The position numbers and the translations under genes are program-made. DNA of 64,000 nucleotides from a virus: UHGV virus genome UHGV-1351333; one strand, given 5' to 3'. Below are positions 2,390 through 63,498 of this stretch, piece by piece. Position 1 is the stretch's first letter, and each line of letters starts with the position of its first letter. The notes beneath the pieces are model-generated. The model searched no databases, was not told the origin of the DNA, and saw only the letters and a list, made by a program, of their open reading frames with translations.

Positions 2390-3118
2390 ATGTGCAGGAA
2401 AATTGAGGTCGAAGGCGTCTGTTATCCGTCTATTATTTCCGCCTGTCAGGCATACGGCCTTACTAATAGTAAGGCAGTGCGTGATCGCCTCGCTAGAGGC
2501 GAATCCGTATGCGCGGAACTTTTCAGGCCGATTGAAAAACGCGGTGGGAAAAGAGAAGTGATTGTTGCCGGCATAAAATATCCAAGCATAAAAGCCGCCG
2601 CTCATGCTTACGGGATAGAGGCTCAAACAGTAAGATGCCGGATTTATCGCAATGGAGGGAAAATAACCGACGCTTGTTTCAAATCCAGGCAGCCGGAATC
2701 ATTTTGGAAAATGGTCTGGCCGGAAGCTGATACGCCCCCGGAGGGTTATATCCTTTTGACGAAATTCGCGAGAAAATATCCGGCATTAAAAAAGAAGCAC
2801 AGCGCCACGATACTCTCCGCTATTTTTCACCGTCGGGAATTAGCGCATTTTGTAAAGGTGCGAGGTCGTGTATGGATAGATGAAGCTTTCTGGAAAGAGC
2901 GGCAATCGTGGTTTACTCTTCGCATGATTAAACAGAGCATGAGCATGACGGACGAGGAAGCGCAGGAGTTTTGCGAAAAAAACAATCTGGGCAAAAAGTC
3001 GCTCCGGATGTTCGGCTTTGTAAAGCCCATATACTATCTTCCCCATCTCATTACCCGGAAGCACTGGACCCTTGAACAAGCTTCGCCTCAAGAAAAATTT
3101 GCAACGATTGCAAATTGA
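2390..3118 (+). CDS. DNA-binding protein with two NUMOD-like helix-turn-helix repeats
   Basis: Internal repeat: CYPSIISACQAYGLTNSKAVRDRLARGES and IKYPSIKAAAHAYGIEAQTVRCRIYRNGG. The pattern resembles the NUMOD1-type HTH found in homing-endonuclease-associated DNA binders. Confidence 0.4.
   Translation: MCRKIEVEGVCYPSIISACQAYGLTNSKAVRDRLARGESVCAELFRPIEKRGGKREVIVAGIKYPSIKAAAHAYGIEAQTVRCRIYRNGGKITDACFKSRQPESFWKMVWPEADTPPEGYILLTKFARKYPALKKKHSATILSAIFHRRELAHFVKVRGRVWIDEAFWKERQSWFTLRMIKQSMSMTDEEAQEFCEKNNLGKKSLRMFGFVKPIYYLPHLITRKHWTLEQASPQEKFATIAN
3095..3116. repeat. palindromic motif AAATTTGCAA(C/T)(G/C)ATTGCAAATT, copy 1
   Basis: aaatttgcaacgattgcaaatt overlapping the last codons of 2390..3118. 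Confidence 0.85.
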
Positions 3119-3205
3119 GGAAAAGCGGGCGGAATGCTATATGTGCCGGGTTTCGCGCGCTTTGCGGTTTGACAGTCTGCGGGCTTTGAAACAAAGTACG
3201 CCTAT

Positions 3206-5608
3206 ATGATTCAAGCCGCCCATTTCGACATCAAGACCGTTACCGGACTTCGGCAGGCGCTGGTATTGTCCGCGGAGTATGAAAATGAGCCTTTTCCTTT
3301 ACAGGATTATACGCTTCACGGCAGCATCGGGACGTATCCGAGGCAGGACTTGAAATGCTCCGTGGACGAAAACGGTCGCGCCCGGATTGAGTGGGATTCC
3401 GTGCCTCCGGGAAACTGGAAATATGATGTGTTCCTTGTCAGTTCCGGCAACGATGAAACGCCCCTCATGGAGGGCACGTTCACGGCGCTTCCCAGAATTA
3501 CCCCCGTTCTGGATGACGAGGCCGTCAATGATGCGGTCGGCGGGGTTCTGCACCTGCCTTCCGGCAATGAAGGCGTCATTACGCTGGAAGTTGACGGCGG
3601 ATTCGTATCAAAAAACTATGCGGCCATCGCCAAGGATGCCGCGGACAGGGCGGAACAGGCGTTGAAAGACATCAAGCAGGCGTTGCAGGGGGTAGTCACG
3701 TCCCTTGGCGGGGAATCCGGGGATATCCTTCTGGATTCCGGGCTGAAAATCACCAGAAACGCGAAAGAAAACAGCGTCTCCCTGTCTCTGGACGACAAAA
3801 CGGTCGTATTGACCGCGGGCAGCCAGACGATTGACGGCGTGAAAACCTTTTCAGCCGCCCCCGTCATTGCGGCCGCTCCCGTCGCGGATAATGAAGCGGC
3901 GAATAAAAAATACGTCGATGACGTGGCGGGGAATGCTACGGACACCACCATTAACGGCGTTTCCGGGGCCATCACCCTGAATCTCCCCCTGAATATGGAC
4001 GCCGACAGTAAAGTGTTGTCTGTTGACCTCAGCAATTACGCGTCTTTGCAGACGGATAACACATTTACTGGCAGCAATACGTTCTTCGCTGGAATCAATG
4101 GCTATGTTGATAGCGTAAATAGTACTGGTATCTTGTACACGACTAACGCCCCCAGCGACAGCAGCACCGGATTTCCGGTATTGTCTATTGCGCATGTTGG
4201 TTCCAGCAACGTGCAGGTTTCAGCCGGAGGACACCTGATGCTGAAAAGCCGCGGCGGCAACATTTACGCGCAATCCATTTTTATCGCAGATAACAATATT
4301 CAAGTTCGTGGCTCCGCCCTGTTCAATTCCGGAGTTACCCTCAGCCAGTCGCTTACCGTGGGCGGCCCCGCGCAGTTCAACGATATTGTGCGGGTTGAAA
4401 CCGGGAAGATTGACCCCGGCAAGTTCGGCAGCACCTGGACATTCGGTTCCCTGATTGAAACGCCGACGACTGCCGACAACAACAACCACCGGTTAGCCTG
4501 CAAAACGACCAATGATAATGCGGGATATATTCTTTATCATGAACGGGTGATTAACGGAGTGTGGAAGAAAGACAAGATTATCCTCGCCTGCCAGTTTGAT
4601 TTTACCTGGCACAATGACGCGTCCATTCTTGTCAAAACCCCCACCGAAGCGAAACAGGCCGCCAATAAGGATTATGTAGATTCGCAATTTAACTACCTGC
4701 CGCTGTCTTACGTGACGCTGGACACCGACCAGACAATCAACGGCCAGAAGAATTTTACCGGAAACATTACCGTTAATTCCAGCGGCAACAACGGCACGCT
4801 GACCTTATACACATCCGGCGGGACAGGGTATTTGAGCATGGACACGGGCGAGATGGTCATTCCAACTGACCTTCTTACCATTACCGGCCAGACTAACATT
4901 CAGACGCTGAATGTAGCGGAATCGGCCCTGTTTACCGGCGGCGTGACCATAAGCCAGCACTTGAGCGCGAACACAATCAGGTCCTCAACGCTTGAAACGG
5001 TCGGAATAGATTTGAGGGGCAGCGATGACCTGGACTGCATCAGCCTGACCGCATTTTACGATTCCCCGGATGAAGTGGAACTCATTATTCGCCCCAATCA
5101 CCTGTCCACTGATACAAATGACTATGACGTCCGGCTTTATCTGACCTGCAGTTCACGCGGCAGCTATGTGGACTGGCTGGTCGGGGCGCTTATACAGGCG
5201 ATGAGGTTTCATCCGGCGGTCGAGTTTTACAATTCAGTGAAAGTGACTGGCGCGGCGCTGTTTCTCGGCTCCACTACTATTAACGCCCTGCTGAAAGCCT
5301 CCCAGATTGAGACAGACAGCTTGGAAATAAAAGACGAGGCGTACCCGGAAGGCTTTTTATGCTATTGCGACACCGGGGGCCTGTCCATGACCCGCCCCAG
5401 TATCAGCGAATCGCTATGGGACGCCGATAACCCTAAAGCGATTTTGAACCGGTCTGATAACGACCAGCGTTATTTGCAGGTTAAATCCCTTACGGCGGCG
5501 GAATATGAGGCCCTCGGCTCCTATGACCCGGCGACGATGTACCGGATTACCGACCTTGAACCCGCCGTGGTTTATCTCGGAACCCTGAAACTATCCCTGG
5601 CCACCTGA
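3206..5608 (+). CDS. tail fibre protein
   Basis: 800 aa and Ser/Thr/Gly/Asn-rich. Two copies of the phage tail-fibre motif A-x-N-K-x-Y-V-D (AANKKYVDDV, AANKDYVDSQ), and long beta-rich repeats. Confidence 0.7.
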   Translation: MIQAAHFDIKTVTGLRQALVLSAEYENEPFPLQDYTLHGSIGTYPRQDLKCSVDENGRARIEWDSVPPGNWKYDVFLVSSGNDETPLMEGTFTALPRITPVLDDEAVNDAVGGVLHLPSGNEGVITLEVDGGFVSKNYAAIAKDAADRAEQALKDIKQALQGVVTSLGGESGDILLDSGLKITRNAKENSVSLSLDDKTVVLTAGSQTIDGVKTFSAAPVIAAAPVADNEAANKKYVDDVAGNATDTTINGVSGAITLNLPLNMDADSKVLSVDLSNYASLQTDNTFTGSNTFFAGINGYVDSVNSTGILYTTNAPSDSSTGFPVLSIAHVGSSNVQVSAGGHLMLKSRGGNIYAQSIFIADNNIQVRGSALFNSGVTLSQSLTVGGPAQFNDIVRVETGKIDPGKFGSTWTFGSLIETPTTADNNNHRLACKTTNDNAGYILYHERVINGVWKKDKIILACQFDFTWHNDASILVKTPTEAKQAANKDYVDSQFNYLPLSYVTLDTDQTINGQKNFTGNITVNSSGNNGTLTLYTSGGTGYLSMDTGEMVIPTDLLTITGQTNIQTLNVAESALFTGGVTISQHLSANTIRSSTLETVGIDLRGSDDLDCISLTAFYDSPDEVELIIRPNHLSTDTNDYDVRLYLTCSSRGSYVDWLVGALIQAMRFHPAVEFYNSVKVTGAALFLGSTTINALLKASQIETDSLEIKDEAYPEGFLCYCDTGGLSMTRPSISESLWDADNPKAILNRSDNDQRYLQVKSLTAAEYEALGSYDPATMYRITDLEPAVVYLGTLKLSLAT

Positions 5609-5659
5609 TTCGCCGGTTGTTCTTTACAGGCATTTCCGCGCGTTTATAATTTTAGGCCT

Positions 5660-7200: not shown

Positions 7201-7204
7201 CGCT

Positions 7205-9788: not shown

Positions 9789-9812
9789 AAATTTGCAATG
9801 ATTGCAAATTTT
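9789..9812. repeat. palindromic motif copy 2
   Basis: aaatttgcaatgattgcaaatttt between 9758 and 9802. Confidence 0.85.
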
Positions 9813-10515
9813 CCTGGGGCGGCCGCAACCATCCATGAGCGTTTTTACTTATCCGGTCGAGGGGCTTCGCCGCGTATTGATTCCGCAGAAATGCGGCTGG
9901 ACGCTTGCCTGGGATTCCATGCACCGCTGGAACGGTCGGGTGTCGATTGACTCCAACGATTACCCGGCGAAAAATCTGGACGCCATGTTCGTCCGGGAAC
10001 CGGTGGCGCGGTTCATGTCCGCTTTCCGGAATAAGATACAATTCGGCTGGAAATCATACCCAAAAGACGCTGACGGGCAGTTCAACAGATATTCCGGAAT
10101 ACAATGGATAGGCCGCGTCTGCGGCATCCACCCGGACCGGGTGCAGGAGTATGTTACCGTGTCCCTGATGCTGGACGTGCTGGAAGACATCATCAAAAAA
10201 AAACCGAAAGCGCCTTTCAGCCATGATATTCTTGACCCGCACTGGTCTCCGCAATCCTGGCATGCCGCGCCGGGCCATATTCCAGGACTGCTTATCGACC
10301 CAAGAAACGATTTTTCCGTCCTGGACAGATTAAAAATTGACTATTCTACGCACAACCATAATAATACAAGCCGTTATGGAGGCTATCAGCCTACGCCGGA
10401 AGAGGTTGCCCGCATCAAGGCCTTGTACGCCTGCGATGTAGAACTTTACGCCCAATACCAGCATGATTACGCCCTTCGCCAGTTATCCGCCCAGCGACGT
10501 TCCGGAGTTCATTAA
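9802..10515 (+). CDS. sulfotransferase-like protein
   Basis: IPQKCGWTLAW resembles the 5'-phosphosulfate-binding PKxGTT loop. VREPVARFMSAF about 50 aa downstream resembles the 3'-phosphate-binding R(D/N)PxxRxxS motif of PAPS-dependent sulfotransferases. Confidence 0.5.
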   Translation: MQIFLGRPQPSMSVFTYPVEGLRRVLIPQKCGWTLAWDSMHRWNGRVSIDSNDYPAKNLDAMFVREPVARFMSAFRNKIQFGWKSYPKDADGQFNRYSGIQWIGRVCGIHPDRVQEYVTVSLMLDVLEDIIKKKPKAPFSHDILDPHWSPQSWHAAPGHIPGLLIDPRNDFSVLDRLKIDYSTHNHNNTSRYGGYQPTPEEVARIKALYACDVELYAQYQHDYALRQLSAQRRSGVH

Positions 10516-11314
10516 ATATTCCCACCACCTGATTGACCTCGCCCTGAGAAAGGCCCGGCGCCCCGCCATTCTTTGTTCCTACGGCAAGGATTCCGGCGTT
10601 GTCCTGCATTTGCTTTCCCAGCACGTCGATTTATCCCATATTGACGTTATTTACATTGATTCCACTTTTGAGTTTCCCGCGTTTTACAAGCACATCGCCG
10701 GGATGAAAGCGTTTTTCGGCATCCGGCACGGCGGCCCCCATGATGTGCGCTGCCAGAACAACCAGGCAATCCGTTCCGGCATGTCTTACGACAACACGCC
10801 GGTATTCAAACTGACCCAGACCCTGAAAACTGACGTCCTCGTCCAGACGCTGAAAGAACGGAACATCGACTTTCTGTTCACTGGCATCCGCCGCGACGAA
10901 GAAGGTTCCAGGGCCAAGGAACGTTATTTTTCCTACAGGGAGGCCGACGGCACATTTGACCCGGTAAGCAACAGGCCCGGATTCTACCCGTTGGATGGGC
11001 TGGATGTCCAGTCCCCCGATTCCGGCCATTACCGCGTTAATATCCTTCTGGGCTGGTCGGAACGGGATGTGTGGGAGTACACGAAAAAATACCTGCTGCC
11101 CGTCTGCCCGCTATACCTTGCCAGGGACGGAAAACGCTACCGCTCCTTAGGGGACGAGCCGGTAACGACCCCGGTCGATTCCGATGCCGACAGCATTGAT
11201 AAAATCATCAGGGAGCTGTATCATACCAGCGTGCCGGAACGGTCGTGCCGGGCGTCACAGGACAATTCCGCGCCGTACGCGATGGAAATGCTGCGGCGCA
11301 AAGGTTTTTGCTAG
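10463..11314 (+). CDS. cysD: sulfate adenylyltransferase subunit 2 (CysD, PAPS-reductase fold)
   Basis: SYGKDSGVVLHLL is the PP-loop. GIRRDEEGSRAKERYFSYRE...DPVSNRPGFY aligns closely with E. coli CysD ARRDEEKSRAKERIYSFRD...DPKNQRPELW. C-terminal AMEMLRRKGF matches CysD GSMELKKRQGYF. Confidence 0.85.
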   Translation: MITPFASYPPSDVPEFIKYSHHLIDLALRKARRPAILCSYGKDSGVVLHLLSQHVDLSHIDVIYIDSTFEFPAFYKHIAGMKAFFGIRHGGPHDVRCQNNQAIRSGMSYDNTPVFKLTQTLKTDVLVQTLKERNIDFLFTGIRRDEEGSRAKERYFSYREADGTFDPVSNRPGFYPLDGLDVQSPDSGHYRVNILLGWSERDVWEYTKKYLLPVCPLYLARDGKRYRSLGDEPVTTPVDSDADSIDKIIRELYHTSVPERSCRASQDNSAPYAMEMLRRKGFC

Positions 11315-11341
11315 CCATTTCATTTTTCTTCCTTTTTTCTC

Positions 11342-12067
11342 ATGTCGCAGGATGACCCGTTTGCCCAGCCGCCGGAAGAGGAACCCTGTAGGCCGGGAGG
11401 CGTCACGCAAATCTGGATAGGCGGGGAACATACCATACCGCGGGAAATGCGGGAATGGATGGCCGGGGTACGGGCCTACTGTAGCCGGTTCGACCTTCCG
11501 TACCGCTGTTTGAACGGGAGGCAATGCAAGGCTTTGCTGGCCGAGTTCGGCATTCCGTTTAATGAGACCGGGGGCATCATGTCCCTGACCGACATGGCGC
11601 GGGTCTGCGCCCTGAAAAAATGGGGCGGCTGGTACCTGGACACGGATGTGAAAATCCAATGCCCGGCGGCCTTTCACGACTGGTCGGCTTCCGTTTGCGA
11701 ACGGGAGCCTTCAACCGTGTTTTATAACGCCATCACTTTCGGCTGGATGTACAATCACGGGGTGCTTTACGCCTCCGGGGACGATTCCTGCCTGTTCCTT
11801 ACCGCAATGTTGGACGCGTGCAGAAAAACCTACGGGACAGTGCATGCCTCCGATTCCGGGTGGGGGCTGGAAAGCACCGTCCAGAATATGGTGCATTATG
11901 ACCGTCAATGGGTAGGCTGGCATCAGGGCCTGCCAAAGCGCGTTTGCGATTCCGGCAATCCGACAAGCATGATTAACCATGTGCTTTACGGCACCTGGTA
12001 CGACAGCTCGCACATGGTTCCCGGCATCAAGGACGCGGAGACGTATTCACGGGTTTCCGATTTGTAG
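11342..12067 (+). CDS. glycosyltransferase, GT32-like (DxD sugar-binding region)
   Basis: KKWGGWYLDTDV matches the GT32/Och1-type GG(I/W)Y(L/I)D(T/L)D motif. Confidence 0.55.
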   Translation: MSQDDPFAQPPEEEPCRPGGVTQIWIGGEHTIPREMREWMAGVRAYCSRFDLPYRCLNGRQCKALLAEFGIPFNETGGIMSLTDMARVCALKKWGGWYLDTDVKIQCPAAFHDWSASVCEREPSTVFYNAITFGWMYNHGVLYASGDDSCLFLTAMLDACRKTYGTVHASDSGWGLESTVQNMVHYDRQWVGWHQGLPKRVCDSGNPTSMINHVLYGTWYDSSHMVPGIKDAETYSRVSDL

Positions 12068-12116
12068 CCCAAAATAATTTTTTACAAAAATAAAAAACGG
12101 CGATAGCATAGGCGCC

Positions 12117-12968
12117 ATGCCACGCGAAAAAATCATCATTGCCGTGTGCGGCATTCCTGATACCGGAAAAAGCACCTTTATCGTCAATGCGGCGAAACAC
12201 TTAAATGGCATGGAAGTCCAGCCGGACGCCCTGTGCGTCGAGCAGCAGACCGGGAAAACCATTGCAACCTCGTTCATCACCACCTGGGGCGAACAATGGG
12301 AGCGGGACGGGAAAACCTGCGATCTGGTTTTTGTGGACTGTCCCGGCCACATGCAGTTCCTTCCGGAAATCGTCGCCGGGTTGGCCGCGGCCCATGCCTA
12401 TATTGTCATTCATGACGCTTCCCGCATTGAGGCGAGCAAGGCCTATGCCCGGATGCTGAATGGCATTGCGGGCATGCTTGGCGTGCCGGAACTCGCGGAG
12501 CTTTACAGCCATTGCGACGATACCGGCGAATGCTGCTACAATGTGGGGATTGACAACCGGCTTCCGGGAATCGCCGAAAGAATCATCAAGCGTGCCCTGG
12601 CGGGAGGCAGGGATAAGCTGGTCCATCCCACGGCGTCCTGGCTTGGCTACATCCGGCAGGAACCGTCCGACACGCCGGATGTACGGCATAAAGTGTCCGT
12701 TGTCTGGCTTCCCTCCGCTTCCCGGCTCACTCCGGTTTCCAGGCTTCAGGCGAGGCTTCCTGACAGAACGGTCGAACTTGGGGCGGCGGAATCCGTAATC
12801 GGTTCCATTCCCGGCGAAAAAGACTTTCAGGGCGCCCCGGTGCAGCAAATCAATCTGAACTTTCCCGTCCGGTATCTGGACCCCGTGCGCTGCCTGATTT
12901 ACAGTCCGGAGCTTGGAACGGTCGGAGTCGGAACAGTAAACACATGGAAAACTCAGGCGCTATGGTAA
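12117..12968 (+). CDS. EF-Tu/CysN-like GTPase domain (candidate sulfate adenylyltransferase subunit 1 partner)
   Basis: G1 AVCGIPDTGKST and G3 VDCPGH, as in EF-Tu and CysN (DTPGH). Only the G-domain is present (283 aa) and the G4 NKxD looks degenerate. Location between cysD and cysC supports the assignment. Confidence 0.55.
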   Translation: MPREKIIIAVCGIPDTGKSTFIVNAAKHLNGMEVQPDALCVEQQTGKTIATSFITTWGEQWERDGKTCDLVFVDCPGHMQFLPEIVAGLAAAHAYIVIHDASRIEASKAYARMLNGIAGMLGVPELAELYSHCDDTGECCYNVGIDNRLPGIAERIIKRALAGGRDKLVHPTASWLGYIRQEPSDTPDVRHKVSVVWLPSASRLTPVSRLQARLPDRTVELGAAESVIGSIPGEKDFQGAPVQQINLNFPVRYLDPVRCLIYSPELGTVGVGTVNTWKTQALW

Positions 12969-13174
12969 ATATGCCTATCTCCCGCGACTGTCCTTTTTGC
13001 GGAAAAAATCTGTGCTACAGCACCGGAAAGGACGGCTGCTATTATTCCTGCCCGTCGTGCAGGTATTCCGTCCAGTCCGGGGCGACTGAAAAACAGGCGC
13101 TCGACCACCTTTCCGCATTTATGGCGGCTGTCCGTGAAAAACAGGACGCTCAACACGATAACATCATCCAATGA
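12965..13174 (+). CDS. zinc-ribbon protein
   Basis: CPFCGKNLCYSTGKDGCYYSCPSCRY has two CxxC pairs. ATG at 12965 is in the ORF-track frame 12944..13174. Confidence 0.35.
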   Translation, partial: VNMPISRDCPFCGKNLCYSTGKDGCYYSCPSCRYSVQSGATEKQALDHLSAFMAAVREKQDAQHDNIIQ

Positions 13175-13674
13175 TTATTCTTCTCACCGGTGAAAGCGGC
13201 GTCGGAAAAACGTCTGTGGCGAAAACCCTGATGAATCGGCATCCGGGCATCCTTCTTGACGGAGACGACATGCGGGACGGGTTAAACAGCGACCTTGGAT
13301 TTTCCGACAGGGACATCATGGAGAACATGCGCCGGACGGCGCATATAGCCATGCTGCTGCATGACCAGCTGCCGGATGACCGGCGCGTGGTCTATATCAC
13401 CTGCATCGCCCCGCTGCTGGCCGGGCGCAATCTGGTGCACGAATTATGCGGCCTCCGGCTGTGGGAAATCCGCCTCCAATACGATTACCGGGCTTCCGAC
13501 GACGTAAAGGGGCTGTACAAGGCGGGAACGCCCATGCGGGCTTATGAGGACTATCCCAGCGAGGCGTTGTTGCTCTCCCGCCGGATAAATCGTGTTTACC
13601 GGTATTATAACGATACCGTATGGGCGCTGGCGGCCAGGATAGAAGAGCTGTGGCCCGCGGACAAAACCGCTTGA
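13171..13674 (+). CDS. cysC: adenylylsulfate (APS) kinase
   Basis: P-loop TGESGVGKTS. LDGDDMRDGLNSDLGFSDRDIMENMRR is near-identical in pattern to E. coli CysC [34 protein letters not shown] matches CysC KGLYKKA. Confidence 0.85.
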   Translation: MIILLTGESGVGKTSVAKTLMNRHPGILLDGDDMRDGLNSDLGFSDRDIMENMRRTAHIAMLLHDQLPDDRRVVYITCIAPLLAGRNLVHELCGLRLWEIRLQYDYRASDDVKGLYKAGTPMRAYEDYPSEALLLSRRINRVYRYYNDTVWALAARIEELWPADKTA

Positions 13675-15951: not shown

Positions 15952-15974
15952 AAATTTGCAATCATTGCAAATTT
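15952..15974. repeat. palindromic motif copy 3
   Basis: aaatttgcaatcattgcaaattt between 15921 and 16014. Confidence 0.85.
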
Positions 15975-16013: not shown

Positions 16014-16409
16014 ATGATTACAAAAGACACCTGCCGAACGCTGGAAAGCCTGCTGGAAGCATTGCCTTCCTCCAAGGACCGCCGCCGGGCCAATGTGTGG
16101 TATCAATCCGCCCTGTCCGCCGCAGCCACCATCCACCGGGAATGCCCTTATCTGGCTGTGCAGATAGCCATCGAGGATAAAAGGCCCGTGTGCCATATCA
16201 ACGTGCTTAACCTGAAACCCATGAACGAGGGATTGACCAGAGACACCAAAACCGTAACGGAAACGGTCGGCTATTTGCAGATTGACCTGACTTGCCGCTT
16301 CCAGGTGACGGACCGCGAACTGGACGATGACGAGGACCCGGAAGACCAGTACAACCAGGCCGAAGAACTGCTTGATTTCACTACAGACATCATCAATACC
16401 TATGCCTGA
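16014..16409 (+). CDS. hypothetical acidic protein
   Basis: 131-aa ORF with an acidic C-terminus (DRELDDDEDPEDQYNQAEELLD). Confidence 0.45.
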   Translation: MITKDTCRTLESLLEALPSSKDRRRANVWYQSALSAAATIHRECPYLAVQIAIEDKRPVCHINVLNLKPMNEGLTRDTKTVTETVGYLQIDLTCRFQVTDRELDDDEDPEDQYNQAEELLDFTTDIINTYA

Positions 16410-16719
16410 CGCTGATTTAACTCCGGAACGCCCCGCGCGGTATCTGCGCCCTGTCGGGGACAAAGTGCTTGTTTGCCTGCGGGAACGGGAATCCCGCATA
16501 GGCTCTATCGTCATCCCGGAATCCGCCCAGAAGGAAAACTGCTGGGGGGAGGTCGTGGCTCTGGGAACCGGCGTCGATTCGGATGCCTGCCGCCTGAATC
16601 TGCACGACATCGTCTTTATCAGCCCCGCCCAGGGAACTTACCTTGTTTCCGGCCAAAAGGACTTGATTCTTATCGAGGCCGGGCGCATTATGGCCAAGCT
16701 GCTTCCTGACGAGGATTAA
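16402..16719 (+). CDS. groES: co-chaperonin GroES (Hsp10) homologue
   Basis: LRPVGDKVLVCLRERESRIGSIVIPESAQKENCWGEVVALGTG...DIVFISP...LILIEAGRIMAKL follows the GroES pattern (RPLhDRVlV...t.sGIvlp.sa.ek...GeVvAVG.G). Its ATG overlaps the upstream stop (ATGCCTGA). Confidence 0.7.
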   Translation: MPDADLTPERPARYLRPVGDKVLVCLRERESRIGSIVIPESAQKENCWGEVVALGTGVDSDACRLNLHDIVFISPAQGTYLVSGQKDLILIEAGRIMAKLLPDED

Positions 16720-19991: not shown

Positions 19992-20013
19992 AAATTTGCA
20001 ATCATTGCAAAAA
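19992..20013. repeat. palindromic motif copy 4
   Basis: aaatttgcaatcattgcaaaaa between 19971 and 20022. Confidence 0.85.
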
Positions 20014-22989: not shown

Positions 22990-23011
22990 AAATTTGCAAT
23001 CATTGCAAATT
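22990..23011. repeat. palindromic motif copy 5
   Basis: aaatttgcaatcattgcaaatt after 22975. Confidence 0.85.
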
Positions 23012-23188
23012 CGTTTGTATAGACCGAAAATGATTATATAGACCTTTTCCTTATTTTCGTTTTTCGTCATTTGCCCTATGGTCGGATAGTTCCCTCCCGC
23101 GAGGGCCGGGAACCCTGAAAACTTCCTGTGGTTTTCAGGAGCATCACAATTAAGCAGGACAAAAACCAAATAGAAAGACAGCACAAAA

Positions 23189-27035: not shown

Positions 27036-27058
27036 AAATTTGCAATCATTGCAAATTT
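27035..27058. repeat. palindromic motif copy 6
   Basis: aaatttgcaatcattgcaaatttt directly after the stop at 27035. Confidence 0.85.
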
Positions 27059-27211
27059 TATTGACACCATATCGTCCCCTTGTTAATCGGACGTTAAGCA
27101 CATGCGTATTTTTTACAAGCAGCGCGTTCCGAAATCCGCGAAAGTACGGCGGCTGACTGTGAGAATAATTGCAGCATTTTCGCTTAACAGTCTAACCGCT
27201 ACAAAAAAACA

Positions 27212-33056: not shown

Positions 33057-33077
33057 AATTTGCAACGATTGCAAATT
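33057..33077. repeat. palindromic motif copy 7
   Basis: aatttgcaacgattgcaaatt between 33039 and 33102. Confidence 0.85.
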
Positions 33078-37052: not shown

Positions 37053-37073
37053 AAATTTGCAATCATTGCAAAT
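37053..37073. repeat. palindromic motif copy 8
   Basis: aaatttgcaatcattgcaaat between the tape measure stop (37041) and ATG 37082. Confidence 0.85.
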
Positions 37074-41616: not shown

Positions 41617-41642
41617 ACATTTATTATTAACTTTTATCCTCA

Positions 41643-41663: not shown

Positions 41664-41679
41664 TCCCTGGAAGCAGGAA

Positions 41680-41996: not shown

Positions 41997-42055
41997 TTCC
42001 TCCCTTTGATGAATGTAATTTAACACTATATCTTAAGAATTGCAAGAGAAAAAAG
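41997..42055. repeat. 59-bp promoter-containing direct repeat, copy 2
   Basis: ttcctccctttgatgaatgtaatttaacactatatcttaagaattgcaagagaaaaaag. Confidence 0.75.
42017..42045 (-). promoter_or_regulatory. sigma70-like promoter on minus strand (TTGCAA-N17-TAAATT)
   Basis: Inside the 59-bp repeat 41997..42055, near-identical to the promoter at 40783..40811. Confidence 0.5.
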
Positions 42056-42070: not shown

Positions 42071-42092
42071 AAATTTGCAATCGTTGCAAATT
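42071..42092. repeat. palindromic motif copy 9
   Basis: aaatttgcaatcgttgcaaatt between the minus-strand cassette and GT25 gene 1. Confidence 0.85.
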
Positions 42093-42143
42093 CCGAAAAT
42101 CAATATTGCTCCTAAAAAATCAAGCAATTATATTGGCAAAGAC

Positions 42144-44916: not shown

Positions 44917-44936
44917 AATTTGCAATCATTGCAAAC
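44917..44936. repeat. palindromic motif copy 10
   Basis: caatttgcaatcattgcaaa after 44902. Preceded by ttcctc, as in copy 15. Confidence 0.85.
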
Positions 44937-44955
44937 CGGAAAAACCGGAGATTCA

Positions 44956-44983
44956 GGACCGTAATCCTACGGTCTTTTTTATT
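44956..44983 (+). terminator. rho-independent terminator
   Basis: ggaccgta-atcc-tacggtc followed by TTTTTTATTT. Confidence 0.65.
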
Positions 44984-44989
44984 TGTCAA

Positions 44990-46886: not shown

Positions 46887-46910
46887 AAATTTGCAATCAT
46901 TGCAAATTTT
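46887..46910. repeat. palindromic motif copy 11
   Basis: aaaatttgcaatcattgcaaatttt upstream of the AAA ATPase gene. Confidence 0.85.
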
Positions 46911-48613: not shown

Positions 48614-48656
48614 TTAGCGTGGTGATTTTTTATCCTGCATTTTTTCAATATTTGTC

Positions 48657-48685
48657 TTGCAATTCTTAAATTAAAAGGGTATATT
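48657..48685 (+). promoter_or_regulatory. sigma70-like promoter (TTGCAA-N17-TATATT), possibly leaderless
   Basis: gtcTTGCAAttcttaaattaaaagggTATATTactgacATG. The ATG at 48692 lies only about 7 nt past the -10 element. Confidence 0.5.
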
Positions 48686-48691
48686 ACTGAC

Positions 48692-49333: not shown

Positions 49334-49371
49334 AAAAAATCTCTCTCATTATCACCAACAAAAAATAAACC

Positions 49372-49857
49372 ATGAGCCATACAACCAAAGTCAAATCCGT
49401 AGTTATCCGGGACGTCCGGGCCATTCGCGCCGCTGTGCAGGAACTCCAACGCGAGGGGCGGAAAATCGCCCTGAAAGAAAACGCCGTTCCGCGGATGTAT
49501 TACAAGGACCAGTTCCAGTCGAGCACCAAACGCCAGCAGGCGGAATTCGTCATCGAATGTCAGGGAATGTCCGTCAGTACTGGAAAACCGTGTGACGTGG
49601 GCCTGGTCAAGCAGGACGACGGGACGTTCATTCCGTATCTCGATACGTGGGGCGGGTACGTCAAAGAGCATTGCGGGAATCCGAAACTGACTGCCGGAAA
49701 CGGCCTTACGGATTCGGATATTGCCATTGCCGCTTTTTCCCAGGCGTATTCCAAACATGCGGCTATTTTCGCGGCAACCGACCAGGGCTATACTGTCCAG
49801 GACTGTTATCTTGACTCCGCGGGCAACGTGCAGTTGACCGTAGCCACCGGATTTTAA
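49372..49857 (+). CDS. hypothetical protein (possibly DUF1257-like)
   Basis: 161 aa. The family assignment is a weak recollection of AAA-ATPase/DUF1257/DUF2997 gene neighbourhoods. Confidence 0.4.
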   Translation: MSHTTKVKSVVIRDVRAIRAAVQELQREGRKIALKENAVPRMYYKDQFQSSTKRQQAEFVIECQGMSVSTGKPCDVGLVKQDDGTFIPYLDTWGGYVKEHCGNPKLTAGNGLTDSDIAIAAFSQAYSKHAAIFAATDQGYTVQDCYLDSAGNVQLTVATGF

Positions 49858-49862
49858 TTCTG

Positions 49863-49885
49863 AAATTTGCAACGATTACAAAAAT
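49863..49885. repeat. palindromic motif copy 12 (degenerate right arm)
   Basis: aaatttgcaacgattacaaaaat between 49857 and 49893. Confidence 0.7.
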
Positions 49886-49892
49886 CAAAAAC

Positions 49893-50096
49893 ATGGAGAC
49901 AATTCACATTACGATTGACCCGGCAGGCCGTCCGACCCTGAAAGGGGAAGGGTTCACCGGCACAAAATGCAACGACCGCATGAAGGCTATCGAGGACAAG
50001 CTCGGCGCCGGAAAGGGAGCTACGCGAACCGACCATCCGGAAATGTACGCGCCGGAAGAGACGACCAGCACGGAGCAGCCGATTCACATGTGGTAA
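49893..50096 (+). CDS. hypothetical small protein (possibly DUF2997-like)
   Basis: 67 aa: METIHITIDPAGRPTLKGEGFTGTKCNDRMKAIEDKLG. Confidence 0.35.
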   Translation: METIHITIDPAGRPTLKGEGFTGTKCNDRMKAIEDKLGAGKGATRTDHPEMYAPEETTSTEQPIHMW

Positions 50097-50437: not shown

Positions 50438-50446
50438 GCAAAAAAA

Positions 50447-50480
50447 GACCCTCGACCAGCCGGAATCACTGGTCGAGGGC
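50447..50480. terminator. hairpin with A7 upstream (+ strand) / T7 downstream (- strand): minus-oriented or bidirectional terminator
   Basis: ccctcgaccag-ccggaatca-ctggtcgaggg is an 11-bp GC-rich stem. aaaaaaa precedes it on the + strand, so the intrinsic-terminator geometry is on the minus strand. Confidence 0.4.
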
Positions 50481-50526
50481 CTGATACAAGTTACGCTGAA
50501 AACACTTTAATCGTGCGCCGTGAATT

Positions 50527-51435
50527 GTGCCAAAATCTCATGTACAGTCAAGCGGAATTCAGGATTTTCACAAAATCTGGTGCTGGCTGTACCGAACGGT
50601 CCGCCCCGCGCTGGAAGCGGAATCCGTTACATTGTTTCCCGTGCTGGAATTTGTGTTCGACCGGACATTGGCCCGCGGAAAGCCCTGGGAAGTTATCAGG
50701 CTTTTTCAGTTTTCGCAAAATCTGGCGTTGCACCGGAACACTATTTCCCGGAATATCAAGCGGCTGGTTGCGCTGGGGCTTGTTCTTGCCCGGAGTCCGA
50801 AACATGGCCGGGCGGTTTATTCCATCAATTTAACCTGGACTGACACCGATATGATGAAAACACCGAAACGGGGCCGGACGGAAGCCCCTGTAATTCCCCT
50901 TTCCGAGATAGGCCGCATGGCGGCGGAAAAAGCGGCGGAAGCCAAAAAGAGAAAGCAGCGTAAATTGTCGTTTGACGCGGTTTCCGGTTTTTGGGCTTCT
51001 ACCGTCATAGATTTGCTGGGAAAAGACGCTTTTATTGCGCCGACGAAAACGAATTACATGACGTTATTCGCCTACGCGAAACGGTTTACGTCCGGGGACA
51101 AAACTTTTTCTGATTTTAAGGATTTTTTAACCTGGGCAATCGGCCGCTGGCAGCTTGTCATGCGAGATTCTTTCCGGTGGACAAAAAACACCGCCCCGAA
51201 AGTGCCGTCTATCGGCTGGCTGGTGAAATTTTCCGCTCAATTCGAGGAAGCTTATTTGCTTTATCTCAATCCGGTCGCGGGAAAAAACCTGTCTGCCGAC
51301 CCAGCGGCCAAACCGGAGAGCAGCCGCCCCCGAACGGTCAGACCGAAAACGGCAAAGCCTAAACCACAGCCGCCGAAACTCCTGAGGCCGTCAGGCGCCG
51401 AGGCCGGAATTGACGAGCTTCCGGAGTGGCGATAA
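50527..51435 (+). CDS. winged-HTH protein, candidate replication initiator
   Basis: WEVIRLFQFSQNLALHRNTISRNIKRLVALGLV is an HTH. Located at the head of the replication module. Confidence 0.4.
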   Translation: MPKSHVQSSGIQDFHKIWCWLYRTVRPALEAESVTLFPVLEFVFDRTLARGKPWEVIRLFQFSQNLALHRNTISRNIKRLVALGLVLARSPKHGRAVYSINLTWTDTDMMKTPKRGRTEAPVIPLSEIGRMAAEKAAEAKKRKQRKLSFDAVSGFWASTVIDLLGKDAFIAPTKTNYMTLFAYAKRFTSGDKTFSDFKDFLTWAIGRWQLVMRDSFRWTKNTAPKVPSIGWLVKFSAQFEEAYLLYLNPVAGKNLSADPAAKPESSRPRTVRPKTAKPKPQPPKLLRPSGAEAGIDELPEWR

Positions 51436-56163: not shown

Positions 56164-56190
56164 AAATTTGCAATGATTGCAAATTTTTTT
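56164..56190. repeat. palindromic motif copy 13 (+T7, followed by cgtgaa and promoter)
   Basis: aaatttgcaatgattgcaaattttttt after the polA stop. The extended context matches copy 14. Confidence 0.85.
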
Positions 56191-56210: not shown

Positions 56211-56239
56211 TTGCAATTTCCATTTTTTAGTGATATAAA
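56211..56239 (+). promoter_or_regulatory. sigma70-like promoter (TTGCAA-N17-TATAAA)
   Basis: atcTTGCAAtttccattttttagtgaTATAAAa. Confidence 0.5.
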
Positions 56240-58295: not shown

Positions 58296-58321
58296 AATTT
58301 GCAACGATTGCAAATTTTTTT
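58296..58321. repeat. palindromic motif copy 14 (+T7, followed by cgtgaa and promoter)
   Basis: aatttgcaacgattgcaaattttttt after the RNase H stop. Confidence 0.85.
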
Positions 58322-58342: not shown

Positions 58343-58371
58343 TTGCAATTTATAAAAAACAATGCTAAATT
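58343..58371 (+). promoter_or_regulatory. sigma70-like promoter (TTGCAA-N17-TAAATT) feeding the 55-bp leader
   Basis: atcTTGCAAtttataaaaaacaatgcTAAATTac. The predicted TSS (~58378) coincides with the start of the leader repeat at 58375. Confidence 0.5.
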
Positions 58372-61474: not shown

Positions 61475-62920
61475 TTGTTAATTTATTTGCCGGAAATGGA
61501 CGCGGTTTTGTCTCAACTTTGCTGGATTCCGAAAATGCGGCTGACTCCGACCCAGGAAGCGGAATTGATTTCCGACCTGACTATTTACCCTCGGATTTCC
61601 GGGTTTTCGGACAACGCGCCGTTGAAGAAGATTCAAACGTTCATTTCCGGCAAAACGTATCTTGGCGTGCCGTGTTTCTACGGGCGGCAATGGTGTGATA
61701 AGCACCGCATTGCAGTCAAAGACGACACGTCTTCCGGCTTTAATATTTCCAAATACATCCGGGCGTTGCCTGACCCGCATCATCCGTCCGCTTCCCAGGG
61801 GCAGGAAGAATTCTTTTCTTCCATGCTGGAAGCGGTCAAGGCCAACAACACCGTACTGGCCGAAGCTCCTACCGGGAGCGGAAAAACCGTAACGGCGTTA
61901 AATGCCATTGGCCGTCTAGGCCGCTCGGCGCTGATAATCGTCCCGAATGGTCCGCTGATGGAACAGTGGAAAAAAGAGGCTATCCGGCATTTGGGCCTGA
62001 AAGACGGGGAAGTCGGCGTGATTGGTGGCGGCAAATCCTCCTGGCGGGATAAGCCGGTGGTAGTGGCTATCATCCACAATATCTGCATGGCGTCCATGCC
62101 GGATGCGTTTTACAGGTCGTTCGGAATCACGGTATGGGATGAGGCCCATGTCGTGGGGGCGGAGTGGTTCAGTTTGTCGACGCAGCATTTGCGTTCAAAA
62201 TACCGGATTGCCATTACCGCCACCCCAAACCGTTCGGACGGGTGCATGCGGATTGTCACCGACGCTTTCGGCCCCGTTGCCGTGAAGCATAGCGGGAACG
62301 CGGTACCTGTGATTTACGCTCCGTTGAGCTATAGTCTCCCGGCTAAACTGCGGGCCTGGGCCGACCGCGCCCAGGGCAAAGAAATGTCCAGAGTGCTAAA
62401 GGCGCTGACTGCCGACGCGGCGCGGAATATTAAAATCGGAAGGCTGGCGCTTGCCGGGTACAAAAAAAACCGTAACATCCTGCTGATTTCCGACCGCATT
62501 TCCCATTTGGAGGCGATGCACGACATTTTGACCCATCTGGGCGTTCCGCCTGAACACATAGGCATGTTTTCCGGGGCGGTGAAAGGCGATAAAGCCGCGG
62601 ACGGAAAGAAAAAGCTGACCAAAAAACAGAAACTGGATGATGTGGTCAAAAATCCGAAGTACCGGGTGATTTTAGCTACCTACGCGATGATGAAACTCGG
62701 AATTGATATTCCGCGGCTCGACATGGGAATCGACATCAGCCCGAAAAGTGAAGCCGTGCAGACGGTGGGGCGTATCAGGAGGCCGTTTCTGAATAAGCCG
62801 ACCCCGGTCTGGTTCACAGTTGTCGATTCGGGCCGGAGATTCCAGGCGTTGTATCGTAGCCGGGAAATGGAGCTGCTGTCAAAAGGCAGCGTGGAAATAA
62901 AACCGATTAAAACTTTATGA
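61475..62920 (+). CDS. SF2 DEAD/DEAH-box helicase
   Basis: Walker A AEAPTGSGKT. Walker B / motif II VWDEAH. Motif III ATPNR. Confidence 0.75.
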   Translation: MLIYLPEMDAVLSQLCWIPKMRLTPTQEAELISDLTIYPRISGFSDNAPLKKIQTFISGKTYLGVPCFYGRQWCDKHRIAVKDDTSSGFNISKYIRALPDPHHPSASQGQEEFFSSMLEAVKANNTVLAEAPTGSGKTVTALNAIGRLGRSALIIVPNGPLMEQWKKEAIRHLGLKDGEVGVIGGGKSSWRDKPVVVAIIHNICMASMPDAFYRSFGITVWDEAHVVGAEWFSLSTQHLRSKYRIAITATPNRSDGCMRIVTDAFGPVAVKHSGNAVPVIYAPLSYSLPAKLRAWADRAQGKEMSRVLKALTADAARNIKIGRLALAGYKKNRNILLISDRISHLEAMHDILTHLGVPPEHIGMFSGAVKGDKAADGKKKLTKKQKLDDVVKNPKYRVILATYAMMKLGIDIPRLDMGIDISPKSEAVQTVGRIRRPFLNKPTPVWFTVVDSGRRFQALYRSREMELLSKGSVEIKPIKTL

Positions 62921-63462
62921 CATTGAGCGAAACTAACAAACCCGCTGTGGAGGCCGGGGCCGGGCATGATTCTGCGCGGCTTCATGGCCGCAAAAAAAAA
63001 TACGAAACAAAGCGTGAAATGCAGATAGCGAAAAACCGCTACCACAAAACGCTGACTTATAAAGTCAAAAACCGGGCGCGGTATCATGTGGATTCCGATT
63101 ACCGGGAATCGGTGCGACTGCAAAACCGGAAAGCAAATGAACGGAAGAAACGCATCATGCTGGCGCAAGCAGTCGTCCGGGGAGGGAAGTACCTGCGTGC
63201 GGTGATGAATGAACCGCCCATTGTCGTTGCCGGGGAAGAGCTGATAACAAGAAAAAGATTTTTGGAGTTAATCAGCCGGTCATATCCAACCCTGGTACGG
63301 TGGAGGGTACACAGGAAATTCACCGTGGAGGAAGTGCACATTTCCGTGGTCCGGAACGGTCGGATTGTCCCCCGTCTGGAACAGATCGCCTACCGGAAAA
63401 AAGACCTAATCCAGTTCATCGACGCCAACCGAGAATATGTCGGGTTGACGAAAACGAATTAA
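62917..63462 (+). CDS. hypothetical basic protein
   Basis: 181-aa Lys/Arg-rich ORF. Confidence 0.4.
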   Translation: MTLSETNKPAVEAGAGHDSARLHGRKKKYETKREMQIAKNRYHKTLTYKVKNRARYHVDSDYRESVRLQNRKANERKKRIMLAQAVVRGGKYLRAVMNEPPIVVAGEELITRKRFLELISRSYPTLVRWRVHRKFTVEEVHISVVRNGRIVPRLEQIAYRKKDLIQFIDANREYVGLTKTN

Positions 63463-63472
63463 ACATTTCCTC

Positions 63473-63498
63473 AATTTGCAACGATTGCAAATTTTTTT
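63473..63498. repeat. palindromic motif copy 15
   Basis: aatttgcaacgattgcaaattttttt after 63462. Confidence 0.85.

Follow-up and report, generated by a model that had tools for sequence, protein, structure and literature searches.

The 17-bp repeat of the Cluster O mycobacteriophages is the closest precedent for the palindrome described here. In Corndog and its relatives it reads TGTTCGG-N3-CCGAACA, with 34 copies in Corndog, and its authors proposed a dimeric DNA-binding protein while leaving the function open (PMC4351075). We analyzed a 64,000-nucleotide stretch (the window) of the virus genome UHGV-1351333, whose source is a gut phage, probably of Akkermansia, and in which a palindrome, TTTGCAA-N3-TTGCAAA, recurs as a 17 bp core of two 7-bp arms and a 3-nt center. 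The whole genome is ∼84 kb and contains at least 21 copies; one relative has 21 copies in 80 kb. As in the Cluster O repeat, invariant 7-bp inverted arms enclose three variable bp, tens of copies are present per ∼70–85 kb siphovirus genome, copies favor short gaps between genes and gene 5′ edges, few of them being near promoters, and insertions and deletions are flanked by repeats. However, neither the sequence nor the phage is related (among isolated phages, portal identity reaches 24–28% at best), about one third of the Corndog copies lie inside genes compared to none of the 15 in the window, and the family-wide lineage-specific half-sites and the subset in promoter register set the present palindrome apart from the Cluster O reports.

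The stoperators of mycobacteriophage L5 and Cluster A phages (gp71; PMC9283540, PMC6550527) are also phage-specific short sites, 20 to 30-odd in number and mostly in intergenic gaps, where one protein binds both a promoter operator and promoter-less sites and blocks elongation at the latter. Unlike the palindrome, they are asymmetric sites of 13–14 bp that bind a monomer and follow the direction of transcription, and they belong to the immunity repressor of temperate phages, whereas neither a repressor nor an integrase was seen in 80 kb of the genome described here. The KorB operators of plasmid RK2 (OB, TTTAGCGGCTAAA; PMC11790492) are T-rich…A-rich palindromes of similar size and many copies, which serve one global regulator whether adjoining a -35, tens of bp upstream, or distant from promoters. 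KorB, however, belongs to a plasmid; it is a CTP-dependent clamp of the ParB family and carries a helix-turn-helix domain. In the phage family analyzed here, the ParB_N proteins consist of no more than the N-domain, an acidic linker and a CxxC motif. Copies 9, 13 and 14, together with nearby copies outside the window, form conserved modules of stem-loop, T-run and early-type promoter that resemble the PeSL (promoter-early stem-loop) cassettes of T4-like phages, in which the stem-loops are regarded as terminators; like PeSLs, these modules precede small-gene cassettes and are located at mosaic joints (PMC2839356, PMC4122927). Unlike PeSLs, 12 of the 15 copies in the window are not joined to a consensus promoter module, many being within core structural or replication blocks, and the conserved unit is the palindrome alone. 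In the P2/186 Ogr-type (dyad near -55) and Mu Mor systems a dyad at a fixed site just 5′ of the -35 is read by a small phage protein, but such late-promoter systems have about four sites, every one at a promoter, and most copies of the palindrome are promoter-less.

Copies of the palindrome in the window

Searching with TTTGCAATNATTGCAAA and allowing up to two mismatches gave 15 matches in the window, whereas shuffled sequence gave 0.05 on average and never more than 1. The first-pass annotation had also counted 15 copies, at coordinates 2–4 nt lower (mostly 3) because it included the A-run, and its spacing of roughly 2–6 kb agrees with the 1.97–6.69 kb measured. It described a perfect inverted repeat, which is accurate for 14 copies, the exception being copy 12 (49866) with a right arm of TTACAAA. 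It also described A-run and T-run flanks: AA directly precedes all 15 copies and TT directly follows 11, although a run of seven Ts follows only three, and T-runs of five or more are likewise confined to three. The central bases are TCA (seven copies), CGA (five), TGA (two) and TCG (one). The asymmetric center is oriented 12 to 3, or 13 to 2 if copy 9 is oriented by its own cassette, which hints at a strand-dependent constraint, although the center is freely flipped in relatives. The copies (given without strand) and nearby elements are as follows; promoter-like sites are read from the sequence.

3098..3114, copy 1, TTTGCAACGATTGCAAA; on the stop codon of 2390..3118, 91 nt 5′ of a tail-fiber-like gene at 3206
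9792..9808, copy 2, center TGA; 33 nt past the stop at 9758, next public gene call ∼9834
15955..15971, copy 3, center TCA; 33 nt past the stop at 15921, 42 nt before 16014
19995..20011, copy 4; 23 nt past the stop at 19971, 10 nt before ATG 20022 (conserved 746-aa gene)
22993..23009, copy 5; 17 nt past the stop at 22975, center C to G in relatives
23014..23042, plus strand, putative promoter-like site TTTGTA-N17-TATAGA, 4 nt 3′ of copy 5
27039..27055, copy 6; 3 nt past the stop at 27035, 5′ of the major capsid gene at 27212
27061..27089, plus strand, putative promoter-like site TTGACA-N17(..TGt)-TAATCG, 5 nt 3′ of copy 6
33059..33075, copy 7, center CGA; 19 nt past the stop at 33039, 26 nt before 33102
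37056..37072, copy 8; 14 nt past the tape-measure gene stop at 37041, 8 nt before ATG 37081
42017..42045, minus strand, leftward promoter TTGCAA-N17-TAAATT, driving a minus-strand cassette of small genes
42074..42090, copy 9, plus-strand center TCG (minus strand CGA); between two diverging promoters
42106..42134, plus strand, putative rightward promoter-like site TTGCTC-N17-TATATT, 15 nt 3′ of copy 9, 9 nt before ATG 42144 (glycosyltransferase)
44919..44935, copy 10; 16 nt past the stop at 44902, no T-run
44955..44984, plus strand, canonical terminator (GC-stem and T-run), 20 nt 3′ of copy 10
46890..46906, copy 11; 7 nt past the stop at 46882, 33 nt before the AAA ATPase gene at 46940
49866..49882, copy 12, TTTGCAACGATTACAAA; uncompensated arm mismatch, unchanged in relatives
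50527..51435, plus strand, winged-helix protein, weak MarR_2 match; conserved 5′ of DnaB across the phage family, replication organizer-like
56167..56183, copy 13, then T7; 20 nt past the DNA polymerase stop at 56146
56211..56239, plus strand, promoter TTGCAA-N17-TATAAA, 27 nt 3′ of copy 13, palindrome center ∼-71
58298..58314, copy 14, then T7; 17 nt past the stop at 58280
58343..58371, plus strand, promoter TTGCAA-N17-TAAATT, 28 nt 3′ of copy 14, palindrome center ∼-72
63475..63491, copy 15, then T7; 12 nt past the stop at 63462, 36 nt before the next ATG

As had been claimed, none of the 15 copies is coding, either by our own gene calls or by public calls on contigs that are identical or nearly so; for copies 2 and 8 an overlap with an open reading frame arises only when a TTG start further upstream is used. 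The copies lie 0–33 nt downstream of stop codons. The earlier description of these positions as operon boundaries is not supported; the copies are at gene boundaries and several are 8–10 nt from the next start codon inside apparently continuous operons. Three are too near the following start codon to control initiation, and the 10 nt between copy 4 and its ATG leave no space for a promoter. The extended context noted for copies 13 and 14 is real, and is common also to copy 9 (on the minus strand) and to a copy just upstream of the window; the leftward promoter at copy 9 belongs to the same module of palindrome, T7, cgtgaaaaactc and promoter.

Lineage-specific versions in related phages

Among relatives that are ∼87% identical in DNA, substitutions are found at none of 364 arm positions, compared to 11 of 78 in the center and 145 of 962 in the downstream flank, a drift of 14–15%. 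A scan of related genomes, which had been proposed alongside that of the window, showed that ∼33 of 79 portal-related loci, all from uncultured phages, have their own enriched, multi-copy TTG…CAA palindrome. These versions are present in structural and replication modules alike, and on the same contig the same version recurs ∼40 kb away in the replication module. That each related lineage has its own palindrome suggests binding sites for a phage DNA-binding protein. The half-sites in relatives include TTGACC, TTGAAA, TTGCAC and TGCAAC, with the outer TTG kept in all lineages, while the -35 stays TTGCxx or TTGACA. The back-to-back -35 hexamers described by the first-pass annotation are thus a property of the window lineage only, and the divergence of the half-site from a constant -35 makes a sigma-related role unlikely.

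The flanks are symmetric (A after 84% of copies, T before 72%), and family-wide ∼60% of copies lie outside long open frames compared to 17% of random positions, a conservative test with crude gene calls. Orthologous positions are retained down to 55% portal identity, as for copy 4, which has a partly degenerate orthologue in a phage at that distance (L128:6574). The motif was absent from a scan of the Akkermansia prophage Chantilly, and the palindrome is not a general feature of Akkermansia phages.

Promoter register

TTGNNN is found 5–9 nt after the palindrome in 36 cases compared to nine in a mirror-strand control, TANNNT is enriched 28–31 nt past it, and complete -35/-10 pairs show a sharp peak at 7 nt. 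In roughly 20–25% of cases the palindrome ends 6–8 nt before a sigma-70-type -35, with its center at ∼-51. In the early-type modules of the window the distance to the -35 is 27–29 nt, placing the palindrome ∼21 bp further upstream with its center at ∼-72. Conservation extends to the promoter-like sites beside copies 5 and 6; the -10 region of the former is fully conserved among relatives, and the -35 of the latter is kept as TTGACG.

Candidate binding proteins

No helix-turn-helix regulator was recognized by Pfam or PHROGs across ∼80 kb of genome. The first-pass annotation suggested two binders encoded in the window. We reject the NUMOD-like protein (2390..3118), which has almost no homologues and whose gene is missing from the closest relative with the same palindrome. 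The winged-helix protein (50527..51435) may be considered a weak candidate; it has orthologues in at least nine lineages with a conserved FDRTxGWGKEWE block, and its putative recognition helix is highly variable between lineages. The ParB_N proteins, with the limited domain content described above, are unlikely binders.

Discussion

The reading that we prefer, with about even confidence, is that the palindromes are operator-like double-stranded DNA sites of a putative phage-encoded, dimeric, sequence-specific protein, and on this best reading they are themselves neither terminators nor promoters. The first-pass annotation had argued for such a protein, and its argument is strengthened by the invariant arms, the lineage versions, the uncompensated mismatches, the weak hairpins and the promoter register of a subset. 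Protein binding, the phage origin of the protein and a transcriptional outcome are all three what we infer from sequence comparisons. Counting against the operator reading, most copies are promoter-less, and the copies with T7–8 tails could be weak intrinsic terminators.

That the element acts instead as RNA is, in our view, unlikely. The hairpin would terminate transcription, weakly or with the aid of a factor, mark a site of RNA processing or stabilize 3′ ends, punctuating polycistronic transcripts like T7 RNase III sites or PeSL stem-loops. Such a role would suit the way palindromes hug upstream stops (for 49 of 161 family-wide copies a long frame stops no more than 15 nt upstream; 3–33 nt in the window), their invariable position upstream of the promoter where one exists, the modest 12:3 orientation bias, and the folding at -8 to -10 kcal/mol of the three T7–8-tailed window copies and some just outside. 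The median predicted fold is however -4.4 kcal/mol, with 64% of copies weaker than -5, and copy 12 is conserved even though it has no predicted fold (0 kcal/mol). T-runs are as scarce as noted above, the separate canonical terminator after copy 10 indicates that the palindrome is not the terminator there, and copy 9, between diverging promoters, would be transcribed from neither; the weak bidirectional terminator proposed earlier suits only the three T7-tailed window copies. The loop varies freely between invariant stems, the arm mismatches of three relatives (L128, L130, L156) are never compensated, there are no covarying arm pairs within a genome, and some lineages have just 1–2 nt between the arms (TGCAAC-N-GTTGCA, TTGCACG-NN-CGTGCAA), leaving no room for a hairpin loop. 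In the MS2, boxB and N4 hairpins recognition of RNA is loop-specific, the opposite of this pattern; invariant arms with a free center fit a dimeric DNA binder.

Protein-bound sites with a non-transcriptional role, such as dispersed sites where the winged-helix protein and DnaB load or initiate, entry to recombination-dependent replication, or genome organization, we consider quite unlikely. The winged-helix protein beside DnaB is the only recognizable family-wide DNA-binding candidate, a UvsX-like recombinase and junction resolvases are among the phage's proteins, and most copies have no promoter. The putative recognition helix varies with the palindrome: L346 and L347 share a palindrome, one copy of which overlaps the start codon of the winged-helix gene in both, and their helices are almost the same; in L349 a triple half-site is found within that gene or just 5′ of it, depending on its true start. 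Yet helix variability is expected of any fast-evolving protein, the gene has no window copy closer than the degenerate copy 12, which lies 645 nt 5′ of it, and the fixed promoter register of the subset would be left unexplained. Origin-binding proteins such as lambda O and SPP1 G38P normally have clustered sites, unlike ∼21 sites every 4 kb. We think it highly improbable that the phage exploits a host protein, either a global regulator or sigma-70 region 4 with the palindrome as a double -35 decoy. The half-site TTGCAA is indeed the -35 hexamer of the consensus promoters in the window lineage and the outer TTG is universal, but the relatives' half-sites depart from their -35, most copies have no -10 at 16–18 nt from either hexamer, Chantilly is an Akkermansia phage without the motif, and a scan of bacterial genomes gave, among the 80 loci listed of 120, only scattered single hits and no Akkermansia record. 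We think it very unlikely that the palindromes persist mainly for PeSL-like modular exchange, as short identical homology patches, with or without a promoter attached, through which gene cassettes would be exchanged, lost or inverted among co-infecting relatives. Homology blocks do end or start a few nt from palindromes (L131 3576/L211 12280; L131 11429/L211 17972), the latter block, at the copy 1 joint, starting 6 nt before the palindrome. A cassette of palindrome, promoter and four genes differs in orientation and location between the window phage and a relative, the minus-strand cassette of copy 9 being found at L211 4206–5308 on the other strand behind a palindrome at 4069. The cassette DNA at 1–3118 is 78–96% identical to Akkermansia prophages, and like behavior is reported for Cluster O repeats (PMC4351075) and PeSLs (PMC2839356, PMC4122927). 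Against this, no joint falls at a palindrome across the 55 kb in which the structural and replication genes are collinear, although the copies there are equally invariant, orthologous positions persist over the distances given above, and a half-site could be replaced across a lineage only with a trans-acting reader or through highly efficient concerted evolution.

With the palindromes as operator-like sites, the two monomers would recognize one outer half-site each (t-TTGCAA), leaving the central 3 bp uncontacted. At sites in promoter register the bound protein would set promoter activity, by activation or repression; at the others, 0–33 nt past a stop in long co-directional blocks, it would act at most as a roadblock or attenuator, in a stoperator-like manner. 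As a side effect, identical repeats would provide homology patches for the exchange and inversion of cassettes. The protein and its ∼21 sites would co-evolve, which would give each lineage of this uncultured siphovirus family its own half-site.

A dispersed palindrome between genes

A search of the window with TTTGCAATNATTGCAAA, allowing up to two mismatches, recovered all fifteen sites reported in the first-pass annotation and no others; in dinucleotide-preserving shuffles the chance expectation was a mean of 0.05 and a maximum of 1. The element is 17 bp long, with 7-bp inverted arms on either side of a variable 3-bp centre, and read in context the conserved unit is AA(A)-TTTGCAA-N3-TTGCAAA (23-mer form, AAATTTGCAATCATTGCAAATTT).

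Copies of the palindrome in the window, with core positions
Copy 1, 3098
Copy 2, 9792
Copy 3, 15955
Copy 4, 19995
Copy 5, 22993
Copy 6, 27039
Copy 7, 33059
Copy 8, 37056
Copy 9, 42074
Copy 10, 44919
Copy 11, 46890
Copy 12, 49866
Copy 13, 56167
Copy 14, 58298
Copy 15, 63475

The arms are perfect in 14 of the 15 copies, the exception being copy 12 (49866), which has TTACAAA. The centre triplets are TCA (seven copies), CGA (five), TGA (two) and TCG (one). AA precedes every copy and TT follows 11 of 15; a T7 run follows three, and four have no T directly downstream. All 15 copies are non-coding, both in a codon-usage gene call and in public calls on identical or near-identical contigs, which bears out the earlier statement that none lies inside a gene. 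The upstream stop is 3–33 nt away (copy 1 overlaps its stop codon) and the next start is at 8–179 nt, with the next ATG just 8–10 nt from copies 4, 8 and 12. The gene caller is reliable in the window and crude in distant relatives, so that family-wide counts of copies inside genes are upper bounds.

An apparent periodicity of ~1 kb, in which 8 of 14 intervals differ from a multiple of 1000 by 50 nt or less, was rejected (p = 0.23 when all periods are scanned) and is also missing from the 21 copies of a relative. Scans of the window for tRNAs and Rfam families gave no matches. The finding is real, and its central inference, a sequence-specific dimeric DNA-binding protein, is probably right.

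The phage that carries the palindromes

The window represents most of a siphovirus genome of ~84 kb, has a G+C content of 53%, and carries nearly all of its genes on one strand. Recognised structural genes include those for a tail-fibre-like protein, portal, HK97-type capsid, tape measure and a BACON-domain tail protein; others encode glycosyltransferases, an AAA ATPase, DnaB, a family A DNA polymerase, RNase H, primase and helicase. The ~80 kb examined, which covers all but ~3.4 kb of the relative's genome, showed neither an integrase nor a repressor nor an RNA polymerase. The portal is at most 28% identical to that of any isolated phage, and the DNA-level matches among isolated phages are confined to short stretches shared with Chantilly and Chambord, prophages of Akkermansia muciniphila, at 78–96% identity; because of these matches Akkermansia is the likely host. 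Such stretches lie at 1048–2062, around a RusA-like gene, and suggest that DNA was recently exchanged with temperate phages infecting this presumed host.

Several other features deserve mention. A complete-looking set for sulfate activation and transfer (9834–13674; Sulfotransfer_2, CysD-like PAPS_reduct, CysN-like GTP_EFTU and APS kinase) is unusual in a phage and, suggestively, fits a probable host that degrades sulfated mucin. A Cpn10 (GroES-like) co-chaperonin is encoded at 16402–16719, just upstream of the portal region, and distant relatives have one too. The conserved trio at 46940–50096 comprises an AAA ATPase, a protein of 213 aa and a DUF1257-like protein (our own reading of the sequence), and with a small DUF2997-like ORF it recurs across the whole phage family; the 213-aa protein is 100% identical in two relatives whose other proteins are mostly 77–99% identical. 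DNA- and glycan-modification genes (C5 methylase, N6 methylase, TET-associated glycosyltransferase, ParB_N proteins, GT11 and two GT25 glycosyltransferases) are swappable among the phage and its relatives (window 22259–22975 and 42144–44256; 3654–5278 in related contig L131; 12484–14408 and 16587–17126 in L211, the 83.6 kb relative), a hint of hypermodified DNA that differs between close relatives. Just past the window end, after the helicase module, contig L127 encodes a UvsX/RecA-like recombinase and a Holliday-junction resolvase (20572–22176), which with the RusA-like gene (1664–2080) indicate recombination-dependent replication or repair. The long 5' leader of the gene at 23189 (23043–23188) contains two GC-rich hairpins that are near-unchanged in relatives while the adjacent non-coding DNA drifts, and may be a structured regulatory leader. 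A very strong hairpin at 50446–50482 (15-bp stem, nine G-C pairs, T7 run on the minus strand), in the gap just upstream of the winged-helix gene beside DnaB, may terminate antisense transcription or belong to a replication origin.

Conservation and distribution among relatives

A contig that extends 8.3 kb upstream of the window holds two further copies, one of them directly behind the large terminase gene, and a relative with 91–96% protein identity has 21 copies in the 80 kb examined. Orthologous sites were compared between relatives that are ~87% identical in DNA.

Substitutions at orthologous palindromes
14 arm positions: 0 of 364 (0%)
Central three bases: 11 of 78 (14%)
36 nt downstream: 145 of 962 (15%)

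These rates show strong purifying selection on the arms and an effectively neutral centre.

More distant relatives were collected through portal homologues of 38–55% identity, giving 79 IMG/VR loci and two further contigs. This protein-guided retrieval succeeded in finding relatives; an exact-pattern scan of IMG/VR with TTTGCAANNNTTGCAAA gave nothing beyond single chance matches among the matches listed. An enriched palindrome of the same design is present in 33 of the 79 portal-related loci, in lineage-specific versions.

Lineage versions of the palindrome in portal-related loci
L136, L141, L196, L137: TTGCAA-N3-TTGCAA, centre non-palindromic
L128: ATTGCAA-N4-TTGCAAT
L179, L181, L182: TTGCACG-NN-CGTGCAA
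L130: TTGCAGA-N-TCTGCAA
L151: TTGAAA-N4-TTTCAA
L176: TTGAAA-N3-TTTCAA
L156: TTTGACC-RAT-GGTCAAA
L163: TTTGACCGTCGGTCAAA
L150, L158: TGCAAC-N-GTTGCA

When normalised, these share the form t-TTG-N9/10-CAA-a with symmetric flanks. The replication modules of the same contigs, reached through DnaB homologues, carry their own lineage's palindrome at 4–12 copies per 11–21 kb locus. Many more distant relatives, mostly of low G+C, have no such element. One locus without the palindrome, L160 (IMGVR_UViG_3300030329_002967), has instead nine copies in 21 kb of the non-palindromic AACCTT-N-TGTCAA (TTGACA on the other strand), which may represent another kind of repeated promoter or operator. The palindrome was not found in Akkermansia phage Chantilly, and a scan of bacterial genomes gave scattered single matches with no Akkermansia record among the matches listed.

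DNA site or RNA hairpin

Conserved outer half-sites around a free centre, and lineage versions that leave just 1–2 nt between the arms, point towards a site in double-stranded DNA recognised by a dimer. An RNA element, or the weak terminator suggested in the first-pass annotation, would account for the tight placement just behind stop codons, for the runs of T7–8 downstream of a few copies, and for the 12 to 3 bias in centre orientation among the window copies. The predicted RNA folds are weak, however, at −4.5 to −9.7 kcal/mol for the window copies (0 for copy 12) with a family median of −4.4, which again argues for the DNA site. The stems have two G-C pairs, short of the stable GC-rich hairpin of an intrinsic terminator, and a terminator scan that needs at least three such pairs passes over the palindromes. 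Nor is a U-tract directly behind the hairpin general, since T7 follows 3 of 15 window copies and the next base is A in 84% of copies family-wide. Mismatches in the arms (window copy 12, three of five L128 copies, and copies in L130 and L156) are never compensated in the other arm, and a canonical GC-rich terminator stands apart, 20 nt behind copy 10; both observations speak for a DNA site read by a dimer. Given the GC-poor stems, the scarcity of T7 runs and the lack of compensatory changes, we do not retain the terminator reading for the element as a whole.

Relation to promoters

Consensus-like promoters of the form tatcTTGCAAttt-N17-TAnnnT occur at eight positions.

Consensus-like promoters in the window
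13803, plus strand
46638, plus strand
48657, plus strand
56211, plus strand
58343, plus strand
60329, plus strand
40806, minus strand
42040, minus strand

Three such promoters have a palindrome 27–29 nt upstream in a shared module, namely copy 13, copy 14 and, read leftward, copy 9. Copies 5 and 6 are followed at 4–5 nt by weaker promoter-like sites, the key parts of which relatives conserve. Family-wide, 32 of 169 copies have a full −35/−10 pair downstream, at distances that peak sharply at 7 nt, against 5 and no peak in the mirror-strand control. Scored alone, TTGNNN is enriched 5–9 nt behind the palindrome (36 versus 9) and TANNNT at 28–31 nt. The 7-nt register places the palindrome centre near −51; in the window modules it lies ~21 bp further upstream, near −72, on the same face of the helix. 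Most copies have no recognisable promoter.

The palindrome is not itself a promoter, as no TAnnnT lies 16–18 nt downstream of either TTGCAA hexamer and true TTGCAA-N17-TAnnnT promoters are found elsewhere; a role as a sigma decoy was rejected along with this reading.

Mosaic joints and cassettes

A small sample of joints was compared in the accessory regions of two relatives. One block of homology ends 3 nt behind a palindrome in both genomes, another starts 6 nt ahead of a palindrome in both (at window copy 1), and a third ends 30–100 nt from one. Behind copy 9 a four-gene cassette lies on the minus strand in the window and on the plus strand elsewhere in the relative, where a palindrome-promoter module once more precedes it. 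These joints imply that the repeats take part in cassette exchange. No mosaic joint was associated with a palindrome in the collinear 55 kb (9–64 kb), and cassette exchange does not explain the invariance of the repeats within core operons.

Minus-strand genes form a single block in the window, at 40360–41955, which corresponds to 4206–5308 of L211; four of its five small genes are on the plus strand elsewhere in this 83.6 kb relative, with the same palindrome-promoter module ahead, so that it behaves as a relocatable, invertible cassette.

The search for a binding protein

No regulator family was detected anywhere in the ~80 kb examined. The NUMOD-like protein (2390–3118) proposed in the first-pass annotation has two HTH-like repeats and resembles NUMOD1, but it has just three homologues and is missing from the closest relative sharing the palindrome; we have dropped it as a candidate. 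The ParB_N proteins encoded just outside the window are unlikely binders, as in alignment they consist of an N-domain, an acidic linker and a short tail with CxxC and lack an HTH, and homologues are also present in relatives without palindromes. The product of 62917–63462 looks HTH-like by eye, but is lineage-restricted with only close homologues (mean pLDDT 53 in single-sequence AlphaFold prediction). The small proteins of the minus-strand cassette and of the early region gave no family matches. The winged-helix protein encoded beside DnaB (50527–51435) is conserved family-wide with a variable putative recognition helix, and the start of its gene has a palindrome across it or ahead of it in some lineages. 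This is compatible with a role as the binder, but is no evidence for it.

Comparison with known systems

The nearest precedent is the repeat of Cluster O mycobacteriophages, which has the same 7-N3-7 design, with 34 copies of invariant arms and an association with indels; it has been reported since 2015 and its function is unexplained (PMC4351075). Tens of copies in short intergenic gaps are common to both, here 15 in 64 kb and 21 in 80 kb of the relative. The stoperators of Cluster A mycobacteriophages are also numerous, some of them promoter-less, with one reader (PMC9283540). However, stoperators are asymmetric sites of 13–14 bp with an orientation tied to transcription, whereas the palindromes here are symmetric including their flanks, the centre flips between relatives, and its bias in the window is only 12 to 3. 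Stoperators moreover belong to temperate phages with an immunity repressor, and neither an integrase nor a repressor family is present in the ~80 kb examined. KorB operators of plasmid RK2, which are multi-copy palindromes of 13–16 bp, share the palindromic design and the mixed distances from promoters, although the KorB system requires a ParB protein with an HTH, which the phage ParB_N proteins lack (PMC11790492).

A match to the PeSL cassettes of T4-like phages is seen in the window's three palindrome-T-run-promoter modules and in the behaviour at joints (PMC2839356, PMC4122927). A stem-loop, T-run and early sigma-70 promoter of this type are found at copies 9 (minus strand), 13 and 14, at 8260 in L131 and at 4069 and 7002 in L211. 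The likeness fails for the other 12 window copies, and placement at mosaic joints was seen in the accessory region but not in the collinear 9–64 kb, with few joints sampled. Mobile palindromes of the REP/RAYT type have a cognate Y1 (RAYT) transposase, whereas the Pfam results for the phage contain no transposase family.

Dispersed, phage-specific palindromes that are predicted binding sites form a poorly understood class, and the element is best placed there as a new member. Such palindromes have been reported before as a kind of element; what is new is a whole uncultured family characterised by one, with lineage-specific half-sites and a promoter-register subset. A wider hypothesis, which we hold to be unlikely, is that this large, wholly uncultured siphovirus family uses a new genome-wide 'punctuation', in which a fast-evolving phage protein without a recognisable regulator domain, conceivably the winged-helix protein by DnaB, co-evolves with ~20–25 sites per genome; the sites would tune promoters in helical register and delimit genes or cassettes, linking replication or recombination to transcription, and the same might explain the Cluster O repeats.

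The lineage-specific half-sites form a natural series in which protein residues that vary together with half-site bases could lead to the binder, and the promoter-register subset lends itself to a direct reporter assay. The motif is also a simple signature by which to recognise and sub-type the phage family in metagenomes. The family in which the element occurs is a broad one of environmental and gut phages, and one of its members is prevalent in the human gut and probably infects Akkermansia. Its sites mark the boundaries of genes and cassettes at which mosaic evolution proceeds.
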